Positions 1,499 to 61,582 of a stretch of DNA of 61,582 nucleotides are shown piece after piece. Numbering within the stretch: the first letter of the stretch is position 1; each line of letters starts with the position of its first letter. This DNA comes from Paraphysomonas bandaiensis (taxonomy: Eukaryota; Protista; Chrysophyceae). Under the pieces are notes generated by a model. It searched no databases and had not been told where the DNA came from. It saw only the letters and a list, made by a program, of their open reading frames with translations. Location: positions 1 to 61,582 of the forward strand of contig CBFFRP010000396.1 of the NCBI GenBank assembly GCA_965644295.1, written 5' to 3'. The translations under genes and the position numbers were made by a program.

Positions 1499-2142
1499 CT
1501 AGTAATCTGAGTTTGTAAGCTTGTTATATCAGTGTCATTATTAGTAATCTGAGTTTGTAAGCTTGTTATATCTGTATCATTACTTGCTATTTGAGCATTC
1601 AAATTAGAAATTATATTATCAACCGTTTCATTAAATGTATAGTTATAAACTAATCCAGAATCCAACATATTATTTACATCTATTATATCATGTTTAGAAT
1701 TTATATTGTTCTGTAATGTTATATCTTGGGCTTCTAAATTTGCAACATCCGCTTGCAAATTCGGTATATTAATTAAGTCTATATCTTGGAGAGCATCAAG
1801 ACCGTTAAAACTTGCTGTCAATGTATCTAATTGTGATTGTATAGTTTCATTGGTATTTATACCGTCTAATGTTTGTATTTCATTTCCAGTGAGGTTTAAT
1901 AATCTTGTATTCATATCTGACAACATATTATTTTTTGAATCTGTGAAAGCAACTGTTTGGGGTTCATTATTTATGGTTAAGTTATTACCATTCAAGATTT
2001 CAACGTTCGCTGTAAATTTAGCATTGTCCAATCTTGCATATTCCGCCATATTTAATATTACTCTTGCTGTTTCAATCTGTTTATGATTTTCTGCATTAAA
2101 AATAGCGTTATTGCTTGTTTTTGGCTTTGTATAAATTGACAT
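1499..2142 (-). CDS. Viral fiber/coiled-coil-like protein, 3'-truncated
   Basis: N/D/T/I-rich protein with repeated NDTDITSLQTQIT (42-bp unit); the frame runs into unrelated higher-GC DNA below about 1499. Confidence 0.55.
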
Positions 2143-2248
2143 CTATATATATAATATAACAACATTATTATATTCTATAATTAAATTAGACTTCAAGGTT
2201 TTATAGGGTTTTTGTATAAATTTGTTTTCTTTTCTAATTATATATACA

Positions 2249-2506
2249 ATGTTAATCGATGTAATTATTAAGTATAAAAAAAAAAGTGGCCCACTCTGTG
2301 TAGAACTCTTTGAATCATTAGACCATTCTAAATTTACCGCTCGTAGTGTACAATTCTTTAAAGAAATAGACCATTCTAAATTTAACGCTCGTAGTTCTAA
2401 CCCTAATTTGTTTTGGCATGATTATACAATAAATATTAAAGACTTTGAAGAATTTGTCATGCATTTTGAAGATGTGATCGATGAAATTCATGTAAGAATA
2501 ATATAA
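2249..2506 (+). CDS. Small hypothetical viral protein with internal duplication (DHSKFxARS x2)
   Basis: ATG at 2249 preceded by TATATA; duplicated tagaccattctaaattta.cgctcgtagt. Confidence 0.45.
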   Translation: MLIDVIIKYKKKSGPLCVELFESLDHSKFTARSVQFFKEIDHSKFNARSSNPNLFWHDYTINIKDFEEFVMHFEDVIDEIHVRII

Positions 2507-2657
2507 TAAAACTGAGGGTTTTAAAAACAAAATTGGGGGTTTTATTTCTAAAATTAAGGGTTTTTATATAAATCAAGGTTTTTTATATAAAAATTGGGAC
2601 TTTTTTGCTTAAATTCAAGATTTTTATATAATTTTTTTTGGGTTTTATATAAACTGA

Positions 2658-2812
2658 AAATTCTGTTGTACTCGCGAGTCGGCGGCCAGAAATTTGAAAC
2701 AGTGTTTCAAATATCTGTCACCGAGTACAACACACTTTGGTTAACTCTCATCCAATCAATTCTGTTGTACTCGCGAGCGGCCAGAAATTTGATACAGTGT
2801 ATCAAATATCTC
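2658..2812. repeat. Two related palindromic units forming long hairpins
   Basis: tgttgtactcg (2664) pairs with cgagtacaaca (2722); inner palindromes tttgaaaca-g-tgtttcaaa and tttgataca-g-tgtatcaaa. Confidence 0.85.
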
Positions 2813-3056
2813 GATCGGTAGTGTTTTGTGTTGCTGTGTATGTTGTTTGTGTATGTTGTCTGTGAGCTGAGTATATATATACATATATATATATTCATTC
2901 ATAATATTCATTGTCATTGTGTCTATATCATTGTGATATATAACAAGCATGGAAATAAAGGAAATATGATGATGTCATGATGAGTGCATATCAGGTATAT
3001 TGTCTTTGTTTGGTTGTATGTATCGTATTCGTTATATTCATTGTTATGTAGGGTTC

Positions 3057-3563
3057 TTATTCTCTTTCACAAGCATTCGTGAAAACTCCAAAGGCTTTGT
3101 TCGCTCTTTTTATTCTTGCTTGTTTTGCTTCTTCTATTGTATCAAAGTATCCAATGTGGATATTAATGCCGTCTAATTGTATTTGCGCTCTCCATTTCGT
3201 TTTTCTTTTGTCATAATGCACCCCTTTCACGCCGGATGTATTTGCTTTGCTCAACTTTTGGTTATAATTATTCTCTTTGCGCGTTGCCCATCTCAAATTA
3301 TTAATATTGTTGTCTGATGTGTTATTATTTATATGATCTACACAAGGTTTATTTTCTGGATTTAGTATAAAAGCCAATGCAGTTAACCTATGGACCATAA
3401 CTGTTTTTTTCTTTCTATTTAAACGTAAGTTCAATCTGTAATAACCATGTCTGTCTAATCTAGGTTTCAATATCTTATCTGTCTTATTATTCTTTACATT
3501 TCCTTTGTTTGATACACTATAATTATTGTTGTAGCCTTCAATCACTTTCCATTCTTCAATCAT
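3057..3563 (-). CDS. NUMOD4-HNH-AP2 homing endonuclease
   Basis: EEWKVIEGY..YSVSNKGNVK (NUMOD4), VHRL..AFI..VDHINN...N..NNLRWAT (HNH_3), SGVKGV..KWRAQI..IGYFDTIEEA (AP2). Confidence 0.93.
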   Translation of the reverse strand: MIEEWKVIEGYNNNYSVSNKGNVKNNKTDKILKPRLDRHGYYRLNLRLNRKKKTVMVHRLTALAFILNPENKPCVDHINNNTSDNNINNLRWATRKENNYNQKLSKANTSGVKGVHYDKRKTKWRAQIQLDGINIHIGYFDTIEEAKQARIKRANKAFGVFTNACERE

Positions 3564-3592
3564 AGTAATAATATATATATAATAATTTCTTT

Positions 3593-3756
3593 TTAAACCA
3601 TTTTATATATATTTTCAATCTGTTTATGATTTTCTGCATTGAAAATGGCATTATTGCTTGTTTTGGGCTTTGTATAAATTGACATCTATATATAATATAG
3701 CATTACATTATTATATTCTATATTTAAATTAGAATTCAAGGTTTTATGAGTTTTTG
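3593..3756 (-). repeat. Second copy of fiber-gene promoter plus first 24 codons (direct repeat of 2070-2215); forms a 30-aa stub ORF at 3593-3685
   Basis: Translates MSIYTKPKTSNNAIFNAENHKQIE-NIYKMV*; first 24 aa identical to the ORF starting at 2142. Confidence 0.92.
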
Positions 3757-3766
3757 CTTAAAGCTT

Positions 3767-4250
3767 CGCCATTATATCACTACAACTACATTCCAGAGCT
3801 TTAAGCATATTCGCCATTATATCACTACAACTACATTCCAGAGCTTTAAGCATTGCCATTATACATTATTATAAAAAAGTCATATAGATAACAAAGTAGA
3901 TTTAATAAGTAGTTTTAATGGTAGAATCCCGGGGTTTTACAACCTTTACAAATTTAAATTATTTTTCATTTTAATTTTTCCCTCCCCCTATATCTACTAT
4001 TAAATCTACTTATTAAATCTACTTTACTATCTATATTACTTTTTATTATAAACATTATAAATAATATATAAAGTTATTAATTTTATTTAAGAATATAAAT
4101 AATATATAAAGTAATTAAAAGTTATTAATAATATATAAAGTAATTAAAAGTTATTAATAATAAGTTATAAGTTAAACTCACAAAGAGAAGGAATTACAAC
4201 CGAAGGTTGTAATTGGAAACACTCGAAGAGAAGAGGCCCCTTGAGGGGCA
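3767..4250. repeat. Repeat/hairpin-rich noncoding region (tandem ~45-mer, ~42-bp inverted repeat, GAA-loop hairpin)
   Basis: cgccattatatcactacaactacattccagagctttaagcat x2; arms 3871-3912 and 4006-4047; aattacaacc-gaa-ggttgtaatt at 4192-4214. Confidence 0.85.
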
Positions 4251-4538
4251 TGTGGGGTAGAAAAAGGCTTGTCCTTGTCCTCTCCTCCCCGTTTTTTTTT
4301 TAATGTGATGTAGTTTTGGGTTTTGGTGATATATGATAAAACTATTACACCCTTACTCCAGCAGGACAGCTTCCATAATATATCTCATGCTTATTTTGCC
4401 CTCAACAATAACCATTCGGATGTCGAACCTTTATATCATTAAAATTTACAATGTATATCATATTGAAAGACTATTTTATTAAAAATTTACGTACAAATAT
4501 ACACATAGTCAATACTACTTCAATGCACACATATTTAA

Positions 4539-5300
4539 TTATCCATACACAACATCTGTACGAAGTAAATACTTTGTACCAGAAATAACTGCCGCCCCCT
4601 CATGTGTGAGACACCTGTCTCCATGTCCATGCAGCAATAATCTCCCTTGATGTGGAGACACTTTTACCTGTACAGGCGCATCTCTATTATGGTTCGCGTA
4701 AAACAGAGTTTCTCCACCTGCAATATGGCGATCTTCTGAGAGTGAAATAAGACTAGAACAACAAATAGTAGAATCTAAACCATTCAAGTAGATCAATAAC
4801 GTGTATTTGGTTACACCATGAACGCCTTCTTCGCTAACATACGAATGAGACTCATCGATATGTTTTCCGAATCTTTGTCCACAATCGTATCTATACAGTC
4901 TAATATTGCTACTACAGCATAGCGGAGTCAGTCCGTCCACCTCCTGTGGAAGAAGAGGAGCCAGCCGTTGATATATCTTATCAGCAATATCCACTCGGCA
5001 GAGCTGAATGCGTCCGTTGTCTCTATGCGCATACTCCATTGACTCCTCCTGAGAGTAATACTCAAACCCCTTGCTATCACCATATGTTATCCATGCAGAG
5101 CATTCCTCAGGTAATAAAAAGTCATCCACTATATGCAAGAAGCTTCCAAGATCACGCCTGCTGAGCACATGATTGATCACTCCACTGCTCTGCACTCTCT
5201 TAAAGGGAGATATGGGCCTCAAGCGAGAGTGAGTAAACTGCACCTGTGCACCATTAGCAGCTTGTTTCGAGGTGTTCTTACTCTTCTTCTTAGGCGGCAT
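4539..5300 (-). CDS. 2OG-Fe(II) oxygenase, prolyl 4-hydroxylase-like
   Basis: RLYRY..GQRFGKHID (HxD), TLLIYLN, GGETLF, HEG, KYLLRTDV. Confidence 0.9.
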   Translation of the reverse strand: MPPKKKSKNTSKQAANGAQVQFTHSRLRPISPFKRVQSSGVINHVLSRRDLGSFLHIVDDFLLPEECSAWITYGDSKGFEYYSQEESMEYAHRDNGRIQLCRVDIADKIYQRLAPLLPQEVDGLTPLCCSSNIRLYRYDCGQRFGKHIDESHSYVSEEGVHGVTKYTLLIYLNGLDSTICCSSLISLSEDRHIAGGETLFYANHNRDAPVQVKVSPHQGRLLLHGHGDRCLTHEGAAVISGTKYLLRTDVVYG

Positions 5301-5386
5301 GCTCTAAGCCTTTGATACTCTTGATATTGACTCCCTCCACTCTTATCACCCCCCACGACCTACCTACAATAATATCTATATACCGG

Positions 5387-5715
5387 TACATACATACATA
5401 CATACATACATACATACATACATACATACATACATACATACATACATACATACATACATACATACATACATACATACATACATACATACATACATACATA
5501 CATACATACATACATACATACATACATACATACATACATACATACATACATACATACATACATACATACATACATACATACATACATACATACATACCTA
5601 CATACATACATACATACATACATACATACATACATACATACATACATACATACATACATACCTACCTACCTACCTACCTACATACCTACATACATACATA
5701 CATCCATACATACAA
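5387..5715. repeat. (TACA)n microsatellite
   Basis: Directly visible, about 90 bp upstream of the oxygenase start. Confidence 0.98.
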
Positions 5716-5888
5716 ACAGACACCTCTGTATCCAAATGTACTGCTGTACTATAGACAGAGGAAGACAGAAACAAGTCAAGGAGTTGTGTTCGCTAACGTA
5801 TCTCAATCGTGTAGAGGAGGGGCGAAGCAACTTGAGGAGGAATTATATACATATATTATTTTAGTAGCAATTTCTTAAGTGCTGAAGT

Positions 5889-6900: not shown

Positions 6901-8121
6901 AATGAGGTTTCAGAAATGAGTGCTGCTCCACTCCGAGAGCGCGCCCTAGTAAAAAAATGCTAGTCTCGATTAAACATTAAGCTTAGTAACGTATAGCTTT
7001 TAAATTTTAATATAATTCTTTGTCTGTCGGCACCAAGCAAGCCCCAGCTACATGTACACTATACTTGCAGTAGTGAATGTCTGATAATTAGCAATAGGCG
7101 TGTATGAGTCAGATCTAATATAGCAAAACATTTAAAATAACTATTGCTTACCTCTGATGTCCTACTTTTTAACCTCTGCACTGAAAGTTACTTGTGCGTC
7201 ATCGCAAGCACCAAGGCGCAGCCACTTTCGCTCTATCGCTCAAAGCAAACGCGGTGAGCAAGCAGAATGTGGATATACCTGACTTCTGCTGTCTTCAGGA
7301 TTGTGAGGACCCTATACATACATAGTCCATATGAGATTACGCATTCTAGGGGAGGAGGGCGGACAATATCACGCTAGGCATGCATGGTCACGAGAAGCTT
7401 CGCGTAATCTTGTTGGGTGATGGGAAGGTAAACATGGCCCTACTATCTACTATTATCTGCGTTCATTCCTATGTGATTCTAGCAAAGCGTTGCTGAAAGC
7501 GAGTGTAGGAAACCTGAAACCTGTCTACGGATATGGAAAGTCTTATTATTAGCAGTAGGCGTGAAGAACCAACACTAGACAAGTAGTTAGATGAAGACTA
7601 GTCAAGCTAGATCGCCACTTTATTATGTAGCGCTACAGAAGCTGCTTGTGCGTCGCCGCAAGCACCAAGGAGCAACAACTTCCGTGCCTTATGAAAGGGA
7701 TGAATGCTACATACAAGAGTCATGATGTAAGAAAATGTTAGTATGCTACACTTCCGGAGTCATGATGTAAGAAAATGTTAGACAAGTTACTGTTAATGGC
7801 GCAGTTCCTGTAACTAGTACCAACCTTGATAAGTTGATCCACACTCTACATGATACTGTTCTAAAAGAAAAAAGCAGATATCATTTCACTTCACGGCACT
7901 ATTGATAGTTTATTGTAACATATGACGAGATGCAGTATGCGATACTAACACACCTCAACTTAGAAGACCACTTCACAACAGTGTACCCAATAACAAACAT
8001 ACTACCATTCTGTTCGACCACGTTACGTAAAAGCGGGCCTTCTATATATAACTTTTTGCCGTAGAGGTTGTGCTATGGGCTAATAATAGCATGCCTAGAT
8101 GTTAATAGAGTACGTATAGGT

Positions 8122-8617
8122 ATACATACATACATACATACATACATACATACATACATACATACATACATACATACATACATACATACATACATACATA
8201 CATACATACATACATACATACATACATACATACATACATACATACATACATACATACATACATACATACATACATACATACATACATACACACATACATA
8301 CATACATACATACATACATACATACATACATACATACATACATACATACATACATACATACATACATACATACATACATACATACATACATACATACATA
8401 CATACATACATACATACATACATACATACATACATACATACATACATACATACATACATACATACATACATACATACATACATACATACATACATACATA
8501 CATACATACATACATACATACATACATACATACATACATACATACATACATACATACATACATACATACATACATACATACATACATACATACATACATA
8601 CATACATACATACATAC
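8122..8617. repeat. (TACA)n microsatellite
   Basis: Directly visible, about 85 bp upstream of the carrier start. Confidence 0.98.
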
Positions 8618-8700
8618 AGTGCCTATAGCAGTGACCACATGCACACATCTTGCTCTGTCTTCGTCCAATTCACTCCTGATCGTACATAAATATAACTATA

Positions 8701-50214: not shown

Positions 50215-51460
50215 TCTTATCAGTTGAGAATAGTAAACCTTAGCAAATAATGTCAACTTCTGTTATGGTAGCGGATGGTAGTTGTAGGGATGGGGAAGAT
50301 GACAAGAAGCTACGGTTTGACAAGAACCAAGCAGACTATTCAGCGAGAAAAATCAAGATGCATCTAATGAAGAAAAACCGAAACCATCTTGGCTTGGAGG
50401 ACCCGCCAGCCGGAGGAAGGAATTTAGAGTCATGGAGAGAGCGTAATGATACCTGTGTTAGTACTATTTGGGAGGCTTGCGAGCATGACCCTGATGTGTT
50501 GGAGGTAGCCAATCAATATTTGGAGGGGAAGGCAATTTTACCTGCTGATGATCCTGCTAAGGAGGTGTTATCCAGTGAGCTCCTTCAGACACTGGTTGAT
50601 AGGTTCAGAGGCGAGATTGGGACTGTATTGGAGAAGACTACGGCAGAATACCATTCGTTCAAAATAAGGCCGGGGGAAAAGGTGTCTGTTGGGGTAGATC
50701 GACTGAACGGTATAATCCAGAAGCTCATAAAATTGGGACAACCGCAGACAGAGGCAAGTAAATTAGCAAAGATAAAAGCAGCGCTGCAGATAGAGGAATT
50801 ACATGATTTATGGATGTCGGTAGCGATGATGCCTAAAGCAACAACTACATTTGATTCGGTGAAAGAGGCTTGTGAAGAGTATGACGAGGCTATGACGCAG
50901 CTGAAGAAACTAAAGGGAGACAAGTCTGAAGAGATCAATTTTACAGCGTCGAAGGAGCCAGTGGTTTGTTCATTTTGTCGGAAGAAGGGACATGTAGCAG
51001 CGAATTGTTATGCTAAGGAACGACAAAGAAAAATGGATAAGTTCAAAAGAAAAGGGAAGACAAAGGAAAAGGCTTCGAAGAGTGTGCAGCAGCCAGGATC
51101 AAAGGATTATACTGGTTGTCATATCTGTGGAGATTTTAGTCACAAAGCCCGACAGTGCAAGTCGAAAAAACGGAAGAACATAAAAAACCCGGATAATGAG
51201 AATCCTCGAAAATCGAACAGGAAATTCGAGACAGAATGGAAGAAATACGTCAACGACGGAGAGTCGTCGGATGATGAAGCGAATATGTTTGGAGAAGAGG
51301 TTTTGCTATCGGTGGATACGTCGGAAGAACCTCGTGTATATCTGGACAGTTGTGCAAGTAAAAGACTGTTTATAGTAAAGGATAAAATTGCACTGGAGTC
51401 ATTTACTCCAGAGTTTGGGGCAATCCAACTAACTAGAAAGGGTTCTCAATTGGAGACACA

Positions 51461-52430
51461 TATATAAAGATCTGATTATTACATGAGAGAACTTGTTGCA
51501 TTTGTCTATCTATTATTCTAGACTAGTGATAACACAGATTACGAAATGCTCAGTTGTCTCGGGACTGCTTGTGCATTGCTGCAAGCACCTTGGTGCAACC
51601 ATCCCTTGTTTTACGTTTAGTCAGGTGGTCTTCCTTTGGGTAGTGTGTCTGGTGGTCCAGTTCCGTGTGCGAGCCGGGGGGAGGGGGGTGACGTGCCATT
51701 CTGTGAATGTGTGGCAGCGGGGGTTTTGTGTTCACTAGTTGTGGTTGGAATTCTGTAGGGAATGAGTGTCGTCTGCCTCCGGATCGGGTTGGCAGGCCCG
51801 CGTTGGGGACGAGGTCTCTTGGGGGGCACGGCTCTGGGGGTGGATGTTACTTTAAGTAGCTGGAGGATCGTCGAGTTGGTGGCGGAGTGTGTGTGGTGTG
51901 GTTGTGAGCTGGCGTTTGCCAGGGGTGGTGTCATTGTTGTCGCGTCGAGTCTGTGAAACCTACAGCCTCTGTTTTTGAGCATGTTTAGTCCTCCATTGTA
52001 GAGAGGGAGCAGAATTTTGGTGACTGATTTTTCGAGCTTGTGGAACTGGTGATCAAGTAGCGAGGTGGAAATGTTGTGGCCGAAAGCGTTAGCCAGTTGC
52101 GAGGCTGTTAGTTGGCCGGTCCAGTATCTCTCAACTTGAGGTGTGTCGGGATCCCAAGCAGCCCTCGCGAGTCTACGTAGGGCATTGTGTAGCCAGGGGA
52201 TGGGTTGTCGTTTCTCATGGAGTTTGGTAAGCTGAGTTTGTTGTGCGTGGAAGGCTTTTTCACGTATTTGGGCGATCTCAGGGTGCGGACATTGGAGGAG
52301 CATGTGCGCCATGTTGTCCAAGTTGTGGTTGCAGTCTGTACATTTGGCTGCTGTTGTGAGTTCGTCTCCTTGTTTGCCCTTGGCTCGATTTCTGCCCATC
52401 GCGTAGGATTTATCCCACACGTATGCGGTT
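51461..52430 (-). mobile_element. 5'-truncated non-LTR retrotransposon inserted in copia with 15-bp TSD
   Basis: tcaattggagacaca at 51446-51460 and 52431-52445; CTDC..DNMAHMLLQCPHP zf-RVT-like finger; removal restores the copia frame KGSQLET-QGTG. Confidence 0.9.
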
Positions 52431-55098
52431 TCAATTGGAGACACAGGGAACTGGTACATTCGGGGAATGGAGAGACATCAGAGTTAGTGAAGAAGCGGTG
52501 AAGAACATTGTGTCAGGAGGAATGCTGAGATCAATGGGATACGGATTACAACTGCTCCGAAAGCCTAAAATCGTGGAATTGGACTCTGGAAACGAGGTGT
52601 TGACTGGAGAGTACGATGAGCATGGAGGAATGCCGTATGTGGACTTGATGGAGGTGTTAAATCTGCCAAATGTGTCTATGTGCAATCAGATGGAGGAGGT
52701 AAATTTGTCGGATAATACAGGACAAGATGCGTTGGATCGCTTACATGAGCGTACTGGACATGTCTCGAAATCGAAGTTAATAGAAGCTCACCGACACATG
52801 TTATTCAGAGGATCAGGACTACAACGACATCACCTTTCGAAAGCAAAAGAGAAGAGTTGCAATAAACCCCTGTGTAAATGGTGTGCCAAGGCGAAGATAA
52901 CCAGGCATTCGTTCAAATCACGGGACAACGAAGAGCTAAGCGCAGTCAGGTTTCTGGAAAGAGTGACAGCGGACATCTCAGTCTACCTCAATTGTGAATC
53001 CAGACAAGGGTATAAGTACGTGCTCCTATTTACGGACGTGGCAACAAAGATGATATATGGGAATATGGTTTGAGGACTCGAGCGGAGAGGAGGTGTTCAA
53101 ATGTCTACGACACTTGTGCGAGGTCCACTTAGTGAAGTACGAGGGGTGGAACCGTATAGTGGAGTATCATGCCGATGGAGGATCCGAACTTATTAGTCAG
53201 CAGATAAGAGAGTATCTGTTGCAGCGATATGGGACTCGGGTGTCACATACAACACGAGACACGCCAGAGCTCAACGCGGTGTCTGAGAGGAAATTCCGAA
53301 CAATTGGGGAGATGACACTGACGATGTTGACGGCATCCGGACTTCCAAAGTCGTTCTGGTTTGATGCTTATCAAACTGCATGTTACATTGTGCGACGAAT
53401 GCCAACTCGGACGTGGCAAGGATGGATGTCTCCATATGAGTGTGTCCCAGGGGGGAGCGTTCCCAGCCTATCGTGGCTACGGAAATGGGGGTGCAAAGCA
53501 TATGTGCTAAGCTAACACCCAAGGCCGACAGGAGGAAGGACTGGGAGGACAAAGCAATGACAGGTTATTTCATAGGGTATCCAGCTGATCGAAAAGGATA
53601 CAAGGTGCTAGTGGGGGACACCGTAGTACACTCTGTACATGTATTATTTATGAATCGGTACCTGAGAGGTCTCAGGATTATTATAGAGAGCTGGAGGAGG
53701 CTCAAGTGGCTATAGATCCCGAGGCTCGTCAACCGGGTGAGTTTGAGTATCTTATCGGAAAGCACCATGAGGATGGTGGTCTGCTATACAAGACTAACAG
53801 AGTGGTGATAAGGAAGGGACTTATTGTGGGATACCGGTCGTTCGTTACTGGTAACCAGGGTCAAGTGGAGGATAAAACTCCTATTCATATTGCTGACATC
53901 AAGAAGATGACAGAGGATCTTGCGCAGAGGGTGGTTAGGGCCAGAGTTACTGACAACCGTGACGGCGGTATCAGCGGAGTGGTGCCACAGCAGTCGGAAA
54001 GTGGGCAGGTGCAGCCCCAGGCTGACTCAGCATTACCTTCGGGGGAAGGGACCCCTGCCGAGAATCATCCGCACGGCAAACGCGCAAGAACTCCAAGGAC
54101 GGTAACGAATGTGTCGGTGTTAGGACAAATCCATCATTTGAGTGATGAGAGTGATGTGAGTGACCTTTTACAGGAGGCAGACTCAGTGTGGATGTCAGCG
54201 GAAGAGTCGACAGTGCCTCAGACACATCGTGAGTCCTTGGAGAGTGCCGAGCACAGGGAGTGGAGACGAGCTCGCCGTGTAGAGCGAGAGGGTTTGGCGA
54301 AGCGAAATACCATGGAGGTGACTCGTATACCGGACGGAGTCGTCCCACTGCACTCCAAGTACGTCTATGGAAAGAAGTACGATAAGGAGGGAGAGGTCCG
54401 CCGATATAAGGCTCGTCTTGTAGCAATCGGTTGTGGACAGCAGTCGAGTGGTTGGGCGAACCATTTCGCACCCGTTGTTAAGGGGGTAACAGTGCGACTG
54501 TTAATCGCCATAGCTTTCGTGATGAACATGGTAATTCATCAACTGGATGTGTCTAACGCATTTCTATATGCAGATATAGAGGGGGAAGTATATATGAAGG
54601 CAACTCCGGACTTTCAGCTGCCTGAGGGGTACTGCTTTAAACTGAAGAAGTCGTTATACGGGCTTCGGAGTTCCCCGCGGTCGTGGTGGAAAACATTGGA
54701 TAAATTCATACGATCTATGCATTTTAAACCATGTGTATTAGACCCGTGTTTGTATTATCAGTATAAGGGCGATGAATTGATATTATTAACGATATATGTG
54801 GATGATATCCTAGTGTTAGGTCGTGATGTCAACATAGTGAAGGATATTAAAGCTCAACTGTGTGCCCGGTTTGATATGAAGGATATGGGCGAGATGGAAC
54901 ATTTTCTGAATGTTCGAGTCACAAGAACGCCAGAGTATATTCGTCTTGACCAATCAGTATATGCGGCTAAGATCTTAGAAAAGTTTGAAAAGTACCTTGG
55001 GTCACCGCGAAAGGTACGGAAGAGTCCTCTACCGGCGGAAGCAATGGATTTAGTGGCAAAAGGGGCGCGGCATGAGCATACCGAGGAGGAACAGCTTA

Positions 55099-55620
55099 TA
55101 CATCGATGCCATCCCCAATGGGATCAACTCGACAGTTCGCCAAGCCCTCGAGGAAAACGGACTGGTCGTCGCTGGCTTCCGGGGATAACCTACCCAGGTT
55201 CCCCTTGATGAGGTTGGTGTCAATGGAAAGAAATCGACAAGACTTATTGCGTCGACAAGCTAATGCCAGCGTACTGCACGGGGTGGTCCTGAGCTTCATC
55301 ATTCGGCTCGCATTGTTCAGTAGATGGATGTTTGTTTCTTCTGTTGTTCTGAGATGTTGTGGGATGTGCTCCATAATGTTACGAGAAATCGAAATGTGAA
55401 TCGCCATCAGAAACTGAAAACCCCCCCCGATCTTTGTAAAACTAAAAACAGGATTTTCGAGAGTTGTGTACACGAGAAAAATTATTCTCTATTGTAGTGT
55501 GTGTGAGTTTTTGGGTTTAGCGAAACTAGAAGAACTATGTAAAATGAATTACACAACCTAAACTAAAAAATCCCCTGGTTTTTCACTCAAAAATGTCACA
55601 AAACTACACATTTTCAAAAT
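55099..55620 (-). mobile_element. Unrelated fragment truncating the copia RT, possibly the 5' end of a non-LTR element
   Basis: Abrupt loss of copia similarity; minus-strand ORF start with T-rich leader; no diagnostic motif. Confidence 0.3.
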
Positions 55621-56959: not shown

Positions 56960-58240
56960 TGCTGAGAGGCGGTGAAGAAGCGATGTCCGAAGGCGCTGCA
57001 GAAGTTTCATCTGAAGCACAAGGAGTTCAAGGCAGCTGAAGGAAGGAATAACAAGTTCAACGCCAGAGAGATGGTTAGCACTCAAAACAAGATTAGTGCT
57101 CTGCTTGCTCAGTTTGGATAATTCGAGATGAAGCCAGGGGAGACCGCAAAAGAGTATGTACTGCGTTTTGAGCTGCTTCTCCGTGAACTTCAGGCGCATA
57201 AGCAAACGGTAACGGAAGAATCAAAGATTAGTCGGCTGAAGGAGGGAATTATCAGTGATGAATATGACGGTTTGAATTATGCTCTGTATTTAATGCCCGA
57301 TGATGTACCATATGAATTGTTATCCAAACGTATCGAACAGTTCGACGACACCAAGTATGGGAGGAAAATCATAGAGAAGAAGCGCAAGAGCACGGAGGAG
57401 CTGAATCATATTGAAAAACCTCGAAAGAAAGAGAGAGTATCTACAAAGAGGAAGTGCACTTATTGCTCGAAGAAAGGTATAATACACAATCATAATACAG
57501 AACAATGTAGGAAGAAAAAGGGGGAAACGAAGGGACAAAGACCGGGCAGTAAGGAATATACAGGATGCAGAGTATGCAAATCCAAAAACCATCGCGCGAA
57601 CGAATGTCCCCGAAATTCAACTGGAAAGACCAAGAGACCCCAGAAATCTGGGAAGGTTTTCACGTTCGAGAATATCCGCAGAGGAGGTACCGAGTCTGAC
57701 TCGGAGTCCGAAGCGAATATGCTTTATGACTGCGGTGTTGATATATATGTGATAAAAGTGACACATGTAGTATGATTGACACTACTGCTGAACACTATAC
57801 ATACATAGATACATGCTGCTCATCGTCTATGTTTTTGATAAATGATCAGCAAGTATTCGATGAATCAATTCCATCAGCTAGAGTTATCAGAGGCTCCAAG
57901 AAAGGAACGGTGATCAATGTAACGGCAACAGGAAGGGTAAACGACTGGAAGGGTATCGAATACAGTATCCGAAGATATCAACAGATTTCTGTGTTCGGGG
58001 AAACGTTTGAACGATATGGGTTATGAGTTCATCGTTTGGAATGGAATTCGAATTGTGGATCACAACACTGGAGCGATAGTATTATTATTGGAGGGACCCA
58101 TGCTTAATGGTATGACTGCGGTCCCTACGCAAACCTTACTGAGTCTGCCAGATGTATCCAGCTGTAGTAGGGGTGCACCAGAAGCAAATTTGACTGATCA
58201 GTATATGGAGAAGATGAGTTGGAACTGCTGCATAGGATAT
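56960..58240 (+). mobile_element. Degraded second copia gag-protease, same lineage as the first
   Basis: PGSKEYTGCRVC..H...C vs PGSKDYTGCHIC; ESDSESEANM vs ESSDDEANM; YIDTCCS protease. Confidence 0.85.
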
Positions 58241-58297
58241 GACCAAACCCGGGGTATCACACCGGGTGCAGCTATGTATATGAAATGAATGTGCGAA

Positions 58298-59041
58298 TGT
58301 AACAAGTAACTAGCTAATATAGAGATAAAAATGCTTATTACTTTGCCCTGCAACTGCCTGAGCACCCTCAAGCACTTATCTGAAGACACCTCCTCAAACG
58401 TGTTAACAGCAAGGCTAGTAACATAATAATGACAGCACATAGAACACAAACAACTCATACAGAACCATTTACATTCTATGAACTATCTAGAAACACAGCA
58501 GAGAACATAGAACAATATTCTGCAGAAAATTCAGCAACATTTCACCAATTTTGTGGAGATATTCACCTTCTGGAAGATTTACGTAGAGGCCTATAGGAAG
58601 AGCCTTAAACCAACTCAACAGCCACAGACCAAAAATGCAGTGACTAGCCAATCAGCGTTCAGCAGTAATACATAATACAGCAGCTGTATAATCTGTATAA
58701 TGATATTCCCTACATGTACCTATAACTGCATCATTGCGTACTTATGTACCTCGTGTCACACAACACACTCTGCAAACACATCACCACCAAGTACAGTCCG
58801 TATTCCAACACCATACAGTATACAAAACAGTATAACTCGAGTACACCAATCAGATCTCTCCATTGCCCATACAGCAAAAACAGTGGCACTTGTAATCCGA
58901 GAGTGAAGTGGAAGTGTGTCTTCATCCGAAGATAAGATGCAGGCTGTACATACACACACAGTCCACTAGAGCCCCCCTTGTAGCATATTAACCTCACTGG
59001 TCTTTTGTGGTATGCGATGAGTTTGACGCCTCGGCGTTACA
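58298..59041 (-). repeat. 3' LTR of Ty3/gypsy element
   Basis: Minus strand TGTAAC...GTTACA termini, directly preceded by polypurine tract agagagggggagggggcag (59042-59060). Confidence 0.8.
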
Positions 59042-59066
59042 CTGCCCCCTCCCCCTCTCTGTTATG

Positions 59067-61582
59067 CTATTCAACTATGCGGGGATACCTTTTGGCTATG
59101 TCTGCATCCACCAGCACCATGTAGGTCTCATCGAAGGTCTTGACGGAGCCCCACGCAAACACAAGATAATTATCAAGGGCGTAAGTAGCACCATTAAGCA
59201 GAAAACGAGCGCTAATCTTCTTTTTAGATGTCCTGTGGTACCAATGCGTGTATTCGAAGACCACCACATACGATTTTGTAGAAAAGTCTGGAAGGTCCAA
59301 GCTCTGATACCACTGATCCCCAAAGAAACGAAGATCCACATACACTCTATCACCTACTTGCACTGCTGTGACGTCTGCCCTCCTGAGCTGAGTCTTGAAA
59401 GGAGTGACCTGATTCTGATCCAGGATGAGGTGATGTAAGTACTTCCTAGATTTACAGAAATCTTCATATGCCTGACAATCGAATAGATCTCTACTCCATG
59501 GTACTTCCAGTATGTCCCCATCTGCATACTCCACAATGAATGTCATGCTAGTACGGTGGTTGGAATCTCCCTTGTACCCATGAATCACCATGACTCTGAA
59601 TTGCTCTTGATCTCGGATGGCAGCTTCCACGGCATCCTCCTTTGAACCCACAAAGTACTCTAGGTCAGTTACAGAATATTTGTGAATAGCCCCTGTTAAT
59701 ACATTTCTGCAGTCTACGTCATTCTTGTACTGGTGAACTACCTCGAAAGGTCCCTTGCGTTTTGTAGACAGCTTCGGCACCGGTCTCACTCCTGGGTCGT
59801 ACAAGACCAGATCCCCTTTCTGGAATTTGTTCTGGGGACCCATCCTCTGGTTAGGACCCTCCACTCTCTTCTTGATCAGAGTCTCTTGGTATTGTCTAGA
59901 TGCGTTGCGTAACTGGTGAAGGTTCTCGTGCATCTTCTGGAGGTATAGATGCTCAAGGACGCGCTCGAATTTCTTCGCGAGATCACTATAGACTGAGTCT
60001 GGTGTCCCAAAAGTCAGCTCAAATGGAGTATAGTTTGTCTCTGCTGATCTGTGTGTGTTGAGAATGATTTGGACGCTGGGGATGAAGGTTGGGTCGTCAA
60101 AAACATCCTTCTCTCTGGTGTCATATACCAATGCTCGCAAGTGTCGTCCCACTTCCTTATTCACCCGCTCGCAACCATTGACATGTTTGTTCGCAATGCT
60201 GAAGACATGCCGAACTCCCACCAGATCGGTCAATTCCTTGAATAACGCTGAATTTAAATCTGGTCCCAAATCAGATATGATCATGTCAGTAAAACCGAAA
60301 TTCGCCCAATACTTCCAGACTGAATCCGCCAGGGTCTTTGCTGAGCATCCTTTCACTGGGTTCAAAAACGCTAGCTCCGTAAACAAATTCACAATGACGT
60401 TAATGTGTGTCTCTCCATTGCGGCCGTGGGGTGTAATGGCTAATGCATCTATACCGATTGCGGTCCTGTGTGTTGGAGGTTTCAAGTGTCTCTGCACAGG
60501 GATCAGCCGAGTTTTCATCTCCCTCCTGGACTTCTGGCAATTTGCGCATCGGTCTATATAGTCCTTAACTTGTCGCTGGGATATGCCATGCCCAGGGAAA
60601 TCCCTGTTCAGTCTCCTCCAGGTCTCGCGCTCTCCCCAGTGTCCGACTTGGGCATTGTGAACCTGATCTAAACACTCCGTTGGTGTGAGCTGCAAATGGT
60701 TAGGGGTGGGTTTGATCTCCTCTCCTAGCACCTCTTCCTCATCAAACATATTGCATAAGGTACTCATGCGCTGTTCATATTCTAACTCCTCCTCCTCAAA
60801 TTCGTCATCTTCATTACACAGGTGGCATAGCCCTTCCGCTGTATGACAATCTTCATGCTCGTCCTCTTCAGCAACACATAGATGGAGTCTGGAGAGTGTA
60901 TCGGCCAGTACATTTTCTTTTCCAGGGATATGTCTCACCTTAAACACAAATGACTGCAGGTAAATTCTCCATCGTATAATCTTGGGTACTTCTGACGCTT
61001 CTATCCATCTCAGGTTGTTATGATCCGTCTCCAACAAAAACTCCTTCCCGATTAGATAATACGCCAGTCTCTTGACCACATAGTAGATTGCAAATCCCTC
61101 CTGCTCAATAGTATCCCACTTCTGTGCTTGCTTAGAGAATCTTTTGGAGATCAGCGCTATAATTTGCTCCTCCTTTGAACCGTCTGCATGTGTCTTGATT
61201 TGAATGAGGACTCCGCCAACACCTATCTCACTCGCATCAGTTCTTATCACCCATGGCAGCTCGTAATCTGGGTAATGAAGTGCACATGCCTCTTGCAAAT
61301 CCTTCTTGAAATCTTCGAATTCCTGTCTATAGTCGTGCTCCCACTTTGACTCATCTGACCAGTCGAATTCAGGTTTCGTAAGATCTGTCAAATGTCTAAC
61401 TTTCTCACTGTAATTTTTCACAAAAGGTGCAAAGAAAACTCCACATCCTAATAATGATCTGATTTTCTTGGATCTGTTCCCGGATTCTGGAAAAGGTATC
61501 TCAAGTAATGCAGCCTTTCTATCCTCTGTCAACTCAAAGCTCTGGTGCTTACATCTATAGCCAAAGAACTTGACTTCTCCAA
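59067..61582 (-). CDS. Ty3/gypsy pol (RT end, RNase H, integrase, chromodomain-like); continues beyond the window
   Basis: RTDASEIGVGGVL, EQEGFAI, ETDHNNL, NVLADTLSR, H..GH..CANC, IGID/ISDLG/ERVN, KGPF, chromo-like FIVEYADGD..EVPW; uninterrupted ORF. Confidence 0.96.
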   Translation of the reverse strand, partial: GEVKFFGYRCKHQSFELTEDRKAALLEIPFPESGNRSKKIRSLLGCGVFFAPFVKNYSEKVRHLTDLTKPEFDWSDESKWEHDYRQEFEDFKKDLQEACALHYPDYELPWVIRTDASEIGVGGVLIQIKTHADGSKEEQIIALISKRFSKQAQKWDTIEQEGFAIYYVVKRLAYYLIGKEFLLETDHNNLRWIEASEVPKIIRWRIYLQSFVFKVRHIPGKENVLADTLSRLHLCVAEEDEHEDCHTAEGLCHLCNEDDEFEEEELEYEQRMSTLCNMFDEEEVLGEEIKPTPNHLQLTPTECLDQVHNAQVGHWGERETWRRLNRDFPGHGISQRQVKDYIDRCANCQKSRREMKTRLIPVQRHLKPPTHRTAIGIDALAITPHGRNGETHINVIVNLFTELAFLNPVKGCSAKTLADSVWKYWANFGFTDMIISDLGPDLNSALFKELTDLVGVRHVFSIANKHVNGCERVNKEVGRHLRALVYDTREKDVFDDPTFIPSVQIILNTHRSAETNYTPFELTFGTPDSVYSDLAKKFERVLEHLYLQKMHENLHQLRNASRQYQETLIKKRVEGPNQRMGPQNKFQKGDLVLYDPGVRPVPKLSTKRKGPFEVVHQYKNDVDCRNVLTGAIHKYSVTDLEYFVGSKEDAVEAAIRDQEQFRVMVIHGYKGDSNHRTSMTFIVEYADGDILEVPWSRDLFDCQAYEDFCKSRKYLHHLILDQNQVTPFKTQLRRADVTAVQVGDRVYVDLRFFGDQWYQSLDLPDFSTKSYVVVFEYTHWYHRTSKKKISARFLLNGATYALDNYLVFAWGSVKTFDETYMVLVDADIAKRYPRIVE

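Follow-up and report, generated by a model that had tools for sequence, protein, structure and literature searches.

The locus described here raises the question of why an endonuclease gene should lie between two copies of one leader and gene start whose codons differ only silently. It occurs in a stretch of 61,582 nucleotides (hereafter the window) from the chrysophyte Paraphysomonas bandaiensis (contig CBFFRP010000396.1 of assembly GCA_965644295.1), in which an AT-rich insert at about 1500-4290 is flanked by eukaryotic genes. This insert, 2.8 kb in length, is one end of an endogenous, virophage-like virus present in many copies, and it carries a NUMOD4-HNH-AP2 endonuclease gene (the HNH gene) next to a fibre-like gene. 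An earlier note on this DNA had read the layout as a homing cassette that brings its own promoter and a silently recoded, possibly cleavage-resistant 5′ end for the gene it interrupts. Our answer is that the two gene heads are population alleles of functional genes, that the truncated one most likely marks where a cassette entered and brought along a second head of different lineage, and that the four silent differences between them, which most downstream copies appear to lack, are probably not needed for protection from the enzyme.

The duplicated gene head and the enclosed endonuclease

Read along the minus strand, the insert starts with a terminal hairpin region and two 44-bp repeats, followed by leader 1 with a stub of 24 fibre codons, the HNH gene and a set of hairpins. 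After the hairpins come an AT array, a small open reading frame (ORF) on the opposite strand, leader 2 and the continuing fibre-like gene from 2142. The labels "fibre" and "promoter" are inferred. The features are:

3874..4290, minus strand: terminal region of the endogenous virus, with AT-rich repeats, a long hairpin and the element end near 4272-4290
3765..3853, minus strand: two identical 44-bp tandem units (repeat family D8) upstream of leader 1
3686..3762, minus strand: leader 1, putative promoter, a role assigned from position only
3593..3685, minus strand: stub, consisting of fibre codons 1-24 (to 3613), six unrelated codons and a stop, matching the majority allele in codons 12, 13 and 15
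3564..3612, minus strand: HNH leader, sharing the 7-nt microhomology AAATATA with leader 1 at the joint 3607-3719
3057..3563, minus strand: free-standing gene for a 168-aa NUMOD4-HNH-AP2 endonuclease of the I-HmuI family with an intact catalytic motif
2658..2816, minus strand: hairpin array downstream of the HNH gene
2506..2657, minus strand: leader-like units in an AT-rich array that varies from copy to copy and contains the second copy of a 12-mer, where HNH-less alleles meet the 44-bp repeats
2222..2506, plus strand: small ORF with a 48-bp tandem repeat, 94 codons from TTG or 85 from the ATG at 2249
2143..2220, minus strand: leader 2, putative promoter, aligned against leader 1
1500..2142, minus strand: continuing fibre-like gene, 214 codons and then broken off, its head carrying the minority four-site silent haplotype

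The segments 3613-3762 and 2070-2220 are 90.2% identical over 153 aligned columns (E 1e-52), bracket the HNH gene and form the only such repeat pair within the window. The alignment bears out the duplicate of leader plus 24 codons with four silent sites that had been described around this gene: the two heads show exactly four differences in codons 1-24, all at third positions and synonymous, in codons 7, 12, 13 and 15. The probability that four random substitutions would all be silent is 0.001-0.007, in agreement with the earlier statement that drift would rarely give only silent changes. Neutral drift after a simple local duplication is ruled out, since the all-silent probability is below 0.01 and both heads are found as population alleles. 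The silent differences are located 28-52 bp from the junction between codons 24 and 25. Their clustering in codons 7-15, to which the earlier note had pointed, is not significant, with 4 differences in the 45 sites of codons 1-15 against none in the 28 sites thereafter (Fisher p 0.29); the leaders, for their part, differ at 8 of 62 sites (2143-2204).

Leader 1 begins with the 12-mer TTTAAGCAAAAA (3751-3762), which recurs identically at 2602-2613. The stub is a 30-codon ORF with its stop at 3593. The continuing gene ends at about 1500, at the start of a different repeat, and because it breaks off there the window copy is a dead fragment. This multi-copy host repeat, at 1300-1500, abuts and cuts off the fibre gene, and in one public sequencing run (X3, see below) it runs into a different sequence.

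The HNH protein matches NUMOD4 (1e-14), HNH_3 (3e-8) and AP2 (1.4e-6, below the curated cut-off), and when the profile of its family was compared with the PDB only I-HmuI was matched (1U3E, 1e-25). Fourteen full-length close relatives (P0024-P0037) were found in ENA assemblies, with 76-97% identity to the window protein. Residues D76, H77, N85 and N98, which we take to be catalytic, are invariant in all 15 of these close variants. They align with the DH and N positions of 1U3E. The window HNH is therefore predicted to be an intact I-HmuI-type nuclease, with putative nicking, target site and biased inheritance. The 15 sequences vary most in residues 34-57 (mean entropy 1.11, against 0.21-0.53 elsewhere), presumably the DNA-reading stretch by comparison with I-HmuI, and the variants are mosaics of each other (permutation p 0.0002). 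With 15 intact mosaic variants, specificity may be shuffled at a single viral locus.

The HNH gene is a separate ORF and the stub is closed by a stop, as expected in the absence of intron or intein splicing. No intron was matched by any Rfam family at E up to 1, where a single chance microRNA match appeared, and an intron reading was thus ruled out. On the absence of splicing, the earlier proposal is supported.

Downstream of the HNH gene, the region 2600-2860 folds with a z of -5.95, and none of 200 shuffles folded as well. By comparison with the published hairpin rule, the array likely consists of transcript-end hairpins of the giant-virus type; terminator hairpins are mentioned for virophages as well. 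The small ORF at 2222-2506 has no homologue in Pfam, in the Atlas or in the loci examined, two of its four listed variants are silent, and it may not be a gene.

Alleles of the locus in public sequencing runs

The window or a part of it is contained in 20 of the 24 listed public runs, marine metagenomes among them, and 12 contain half or more of its words. Four runs, X1, X3, X4 and X5, were compared. Contig, joint and variant figures are the best entries of longer lists, and depths are rough contig means rather than copy numbers, of which only ratios within a run were used. As the contigs fork at a TA run between codon 7 and the leader, codon-7 alleles are not linkable to leader types.

Both heads read on into fibre codon 25 in these runs, consistent with the earlier view that the two copies come from functional alleles. 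In X4, one unbranched contig (1922-2097, depth 87.1) extends from 28 bp upstream to 148 bp downstream of the junction between codons 24 and 25, and occupied and empty copies therefore look alike there. Two contigs of the same run that have the stub-type letters in codons 12, 13 and 15 together reach 99.6, and about 87% of the continuing fibre genes in X4 carry stub-type codons; in X1, 82-93% of the depth is stub-type at positions 2098, 2104 and 2107. The four-site head of the window is found in contigs without differences in X4 (2068-2151, 11.3), X5 (2068-2151, 624.6) and X3 (2068-2136, 19.2). Compared with continuing-gene totals of 87.1 in X4 and 180.5 in X3, it makes up about 9-13% of the continuing genes in X3, X4 and X5 (about 11% in X3 and 9-12% in X5). 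An intermediate head haplotype is present in X3 (depth 47.7), and a third silent allele of codon 7 occurs in the runs, giving three in total.

The HNH leader reaches 56% of the depth of the continuing genes in X4, 61% in X3 and 36-86% in X5, whose HNH-bearing depth is matched by the four-site head to only 17-23% in these three runs. A recoded resistant head as a fixed part of the cassette, as the earlier note had it, is not supported by these proportions. Total HNH depth roughly equals that of the HNH leader (48.8 vs 48.8-53.2 in X4, 110.3 vs 113.4 in X3); as it matches the depth of one leader, the HNH variants likely share the window locus.

Stub depth in X4 was obtained by two independent subtractions, which gave 23.8 and 22.0. 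Leader 1 exceeds stub depth in all three runs analysed in this way (X3, X4 and X5), which indicates an allele with leader 1 on a continuing fibre gene, inferred by subtraction to account for 37-47 of 87 in X4, 30-51 of 180 in X3 and up to about 2,900 in X5. As to the earlier suggestion that empty alleles might carry the stub-type codons, these codons are the majority in continuing genes; leader 1 on a continuing gene depends on depth subtraction and is unphased with the element terminus.

Other alleles lack one or the other part of the window arrangement. Stub-less HNH alleles appear through three different joints, namely 3607-3719 in X3 and X4 (depths 57.9 and 26.8, with 7 bases shared) and two others in X1. 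HNH-less alleles keep the small ORF side without leader 1, stub or HNH gene, through joints that connect 2601-2607 with 3752-3799 in both X1 and X4; near the 12-bp repeat, at least six joints are listed. A joint at 2187-2529, present in all four runs, may reflect either a missing small ORF or one more unit in the array. With the small ORF side found without HNH, and HNH found without stub, the cassette is not the one fixed unit that had been proposed.

Origin of the arrangement

We favour, at roughly even odds (about 50%), a single entry of an HNH block at codon 24/25 that brought a second head of different lineage, followed by conversion-driven spread and trimming. One non-homologous event would have joined one lineage's end to the other lineage's HNH block, leaving the resident leader and head behind as the stub, while the second leader and head arrived behind the HNH gene. 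The four silent differences would then be ordinary allelic differences between two viral lineages, because the leaders differ at a similar rate. Recombination likely swapped the four-site codons for the common ones in most downstream copies. Spread would likely have occurred by nick-triggered gene conversion during joint replication of viral copies, with the element end plus stub as one homology arm and the fibre body as the other. Short-homology deletions likely trimmed the block later, so that either the stub or the whole HNH part was lost. I-HmuI, which recognises about 24 bp, is reported to nick both intron-plus and intron-minus alleles; a nicking enzyme of this family need not spare its own allele, and recoding is not required.

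L105 (1657-2741) offers a further example of this layout for a different gene: here the leader and head of the next gene are duplicated around an HNH gene of the same family with 84% identity over 134 bp. The HNH gene starts in frame with the duplicated head there, and its enzyme is without the Asp-His pair. L105 stands outside the 121 loci with enough flank for a repeat test, among 163 HNH-family loci examined.

Several observations weigh against a single entry as we reconstruct it. None of these 121 eligible loci has a duplicated gene start around HNH, and six have a leader-like repeat only, on both sides (two of these are likely the same contig). The layout gives no direction: an HNH gene that captured leader 1 and a head in front of a resident small-ORF/leader-2 gene would yield the same alleles, and the "empty" allele may be a pop-out between the repeats. 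Leader 1, terminus and fibre body are phased together on no contig, and AT bias and overlapping contigs blur the depths, with X1 unresolvable. Moreover, the window HNH variant and the four-site head are similar in depth in three runs, as would be expected if the enzyme were matched to its head.

Such a match is the core of one alternative, in which each HNH variant nicks sensitive heads within codons 7-15 and carries its own silently recoded, resistant head, the window being a young intact element. This was the spirit of the earlier note, and we consider it unlikely, at somewhat under half the weight given to the single entry. The window layout is a mirror image of that of the WHO elements compared below, in which resistance is reported to depend on the particular pairing of allele and enzyme, 8 of 24 silent changes having conferred it. 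HNH variants which are mosaic, most variable in residues 34-57 and likely at one locus by their depth match to the leader in X3 and X4 agree with it, as do the three silent alleles of codon 7. The window's HNH letters at 3162/3364 have upper-bound depths of 797/645 against 625 for the four-site head in X5, 10.4/7.1 against 11.3 in X4 and 13.1/8.8 against 19.2 in X3. This match is weak, since with 5-10 variants each would be expected at around 10%; in X1 it breaks down (77-96 vs 1,390, a figure inflated by overlaps), and X4 and X5 lack the HNH letter that the window has at 3099. For about 77-83% of the depth that bears HNH, a four-site head cannot be what follows (33% in X3 when a two-codon partial head is counted). 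A target site in codons 7-15 would persist in the element's own stub, and X4 shows no variation from 28 bp upstream to 148 bp downstream of the junction, whereas WHO resistance changes are reported to lie at most 7 bp from the cut. The wider picture of an arms race in a virophage, with HNH specificity variants that shuffle their DNA-reading strands and compete for the terminal slot, each exchanging the fibre promoter and head for a silently different head spared by its own enzyme, is doubtful to a similar degree; under it, the window would keep one young matched pair of enzyme and head.

A capture of the promoter by a mobile unit composed of leader 1, stub, HNH gene and hairpins (about 3755-2607, between the 12-bp repeats), landing before a resident small-ORF/leader-2/fibre segment, is about as improbable in our estimate, and so is its corollary that the stub came along with a borrowed promoter and that any enzyme target is elsewhere. 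The same 12-mer at both ends of the proposed unit argues for it, as do the joints that define an HNH-less allele retaining the small ORF side, although these joints are shallow (7.9-34.5 in X1, 13.5 in X4) and can equally be read as deletions between 12-mers. HNH point depths in X1 are 0.14-0.52 of the small-ORF depths, and 57.9 of 110.3 of the HNH-leader depth in X3 and 26.8 of 48.8 in X4 is without stub; three different stub-less joints, on the other hand, suggest repeated stub loss over late gain. The HNH family adjoins many different viral genes, which also fits this reading. Two related viral contigs, L172 (1-437) and L173 (940-1716), share a fibre start that is 99.8% identical and have different upstream cargo, L172 a SET-domain gene and L173 a GIY-YIG-like one, with the switch about 75 bp before the ATG and no stub. 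This difference in cargo indicates that the slot before the fibre gene is a cargo site in related viruses too, in line with promoter capture, while L105, as a second entry just inside a gene start, speaks for the single entry. Finally, an assembly chimera or local decay, with the window order produced by mis-joined repeat copies or by rearrangement in one dead insertion, is very improbable. The element is highly multi-copy, the window copy is cut off, no listed contig crosses the whole stretch, and the long-range phase of the parts rests on the window assembly. Nevertheless, the join of small ORF and leader 2 is found in difference-free contigs of independent runs (X5 2160-2299, X3 2161-2234), as is that of the four-site head with the fibre body, and the stub-HNH join, directly in no listed contig, is backed in X4 by two agreeing depth estimates.

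The element, its relatives and known systems

Multi-copy integration is evident from single contigs at depth 143-180 in X3, compared with about 2.4 in the flanks. Depth falls to host level beyond about 4290, an X4 contig departs from the window sequence at 4280, and a single-copy junction contig in X1 spans 4272-4500. The terminal hairpin has arms of 52 bp (3874-3925 / 3993-4044), a z of -8.95 and high depth in all four runs; this hairpin (3874-4044) may be a replication origin or a terminal signal. Elsewhere in the window, the ORFs at 50244-55208 and 57122-61580 resemble, by eye, pieces of Ty1/copia-type and Ty3/gypsy-type retrotransposons, presumably, and the ORF at 51617-52477 (minus strand) looks by eye like what we take to be a non-LTR fragment. 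Long (TATG)n microsatellites at 5299-5760 and 8100-8620 give spurious ORFs in several frames.

No double-jelly-roll capsid or other core gene is present in the 2.8-kb fragment. We assign the element to a likely virophage-type virus by association with the loci of capsid-bearing relatives. The fibre-like protein resembles coiled-coil proteins of 1,100-2,100 aa, several with immunoglobulin-like domains, and genes of virophage-like contigs. Three viral contigs with a fibre relative (L171-L173) all encode a protease-like protein, and L171 and L172 also a capsid-like one. The nearest Atlas clusters of the capsid-like proteins are mostly Preplasmiviricota, Sputnik-type capsid clusters among them; the AlphaFold model of the L171 capsid is poor (pLDDT 41.6), and its fold search is consistent with a double jelly roll and no more. 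The closest HNH loci carry related capsids and A32 ATPases. Genes for an adenain-like protease, a double-jelly-roll capsid and an A32 ATPase occur in loci with fibre relatives (L171-L173) and with HNH relatives (L101, L102, L107 and L112).

Searches for close relatives gave no match by DNA pattern in viral_contigs, and none of 225 candidates was confirmed in metagenome_contigs with the first 80 residues of the fibre. A first fibre scan returned only low-complexity coiled-coil matches (7 loci) and was set aside. Related giant fibre-like proteins of the clusters P0007 and P0150 have at least 19 members, among those listed, on ENA contigs of 16-483 kb, which suggests that a related virus is endogenous in many copies in some other eukaryote. 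The virophage-like contig L013, which has repeated hairpins, contains two tandem HNH paralogues at 407-1494, identical at 72% of DNA positions over 385 bp, next to a collagen-like gene.

The fold and catalytic motif of the window HNH are those of the NUMOD4-HNH nicking homing endonucleases I-HmuI and I-BasI (PDB 1U3E; PMC3017599), which are encoded by group I introns of Bacillus phages, whereas the window HNH is free-standing and has a C-terminal AP2-like domain. In the "intronless homing" of T4-like phages, intergenic seg and mob nucleases borrow host promoters and can carry the promoter of the downstream gene, and the portion of the review at hand describes no duplicated gene head (PMC2988022). 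Among virophages and polinton-like viruses, a free-standing NUMOD4-HNH-AP2 gene occurs in a polinton-like virus of Symbiodinium, for which that part of the paper reports no head duplication (PMC12220804). A full-text search of the accessible literature on viruses and phages found no duplicated gene head around HNH in virophages.

The closest likenesses come from yeasts and fungal mitochondria, where the mirror image of the mechanism operates at the 3′ end, so that the process put forward in the earlier note is not a new kind. In the WHO elements of Torulaspora and Lachancea (Coughlan et al. 2020, PMC7282813; Osborne et al., bioRxiv 10.64898/2026.08.13.744650), as here, a free-standing endonuclease gene has the full gene on one side and a duplicated piece of that gene's end on the other. 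Both systems dispense with splicing, have a fragment usable as a homology arm, host diverse enzymes at one locus and show deletions of fragment or enzyme. WHO elements combine LAGLIDADG and zinc-finger domains, make double-strand breaks, replace the 3′ half of nuclear FBA1 in meiosis and depend on resistance at a 28-bp site, whereas in the window the enzyme is an HNH from a nicking family, the duplicated end is a 5′ leader and head, the gene is viral and no resistant head is fixed. A NUMOD4-HNH-AP2 gene beside a viral fibre-like gene, rather than LAGLIDADG/zinc-finger beside FBA1, sets the locus apart from WHO proper, and we do not class it as a WHO or mORF member because not every occupied allele carries a distinct head, the four-site head making up the minority of HNH-leader depth given above. 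In the fungal mitochondrial mORFs (Allomyces atp6; Glomus atp6, atp9, cox2 and nad3; PMC3630166), an endonuclease likewise brings a foreign gene end, which creates a hybrid gene and leaves the native end duplicated, and free GIY-YIG genes duplicated with the atp9 N-terminus (PMC7487136) show a comparable end duplication. Those cases involve LAGLIDADG or GIY-YIG enzymes, organelle genes and mostly C-terminal duplicates at 64-81% identity, compared with HNH-AP2, a 5′ end, about 90% identity and many coexisting viral alleles in the window.

The locus is thus of a WHO/mORF-like build, mirrored to the 5′ end, in a virophage-like virus, and end-replacing homing without splicing is already established. 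With a 5′ HNH version in an endogenous virus of virophage-like type, its range would come to include the viruses of eukaryotes. The integrated copies are a stored population, with empty-like, full, stub-less and HNH-less alleles and enzyme variants in single runs, and the mosaic HNH set is a natural panel for how I-HmuI-type nickases change specificity. If resistance is uninvolved, a duplicated and silently different gene head alone is no evidence of recoding.

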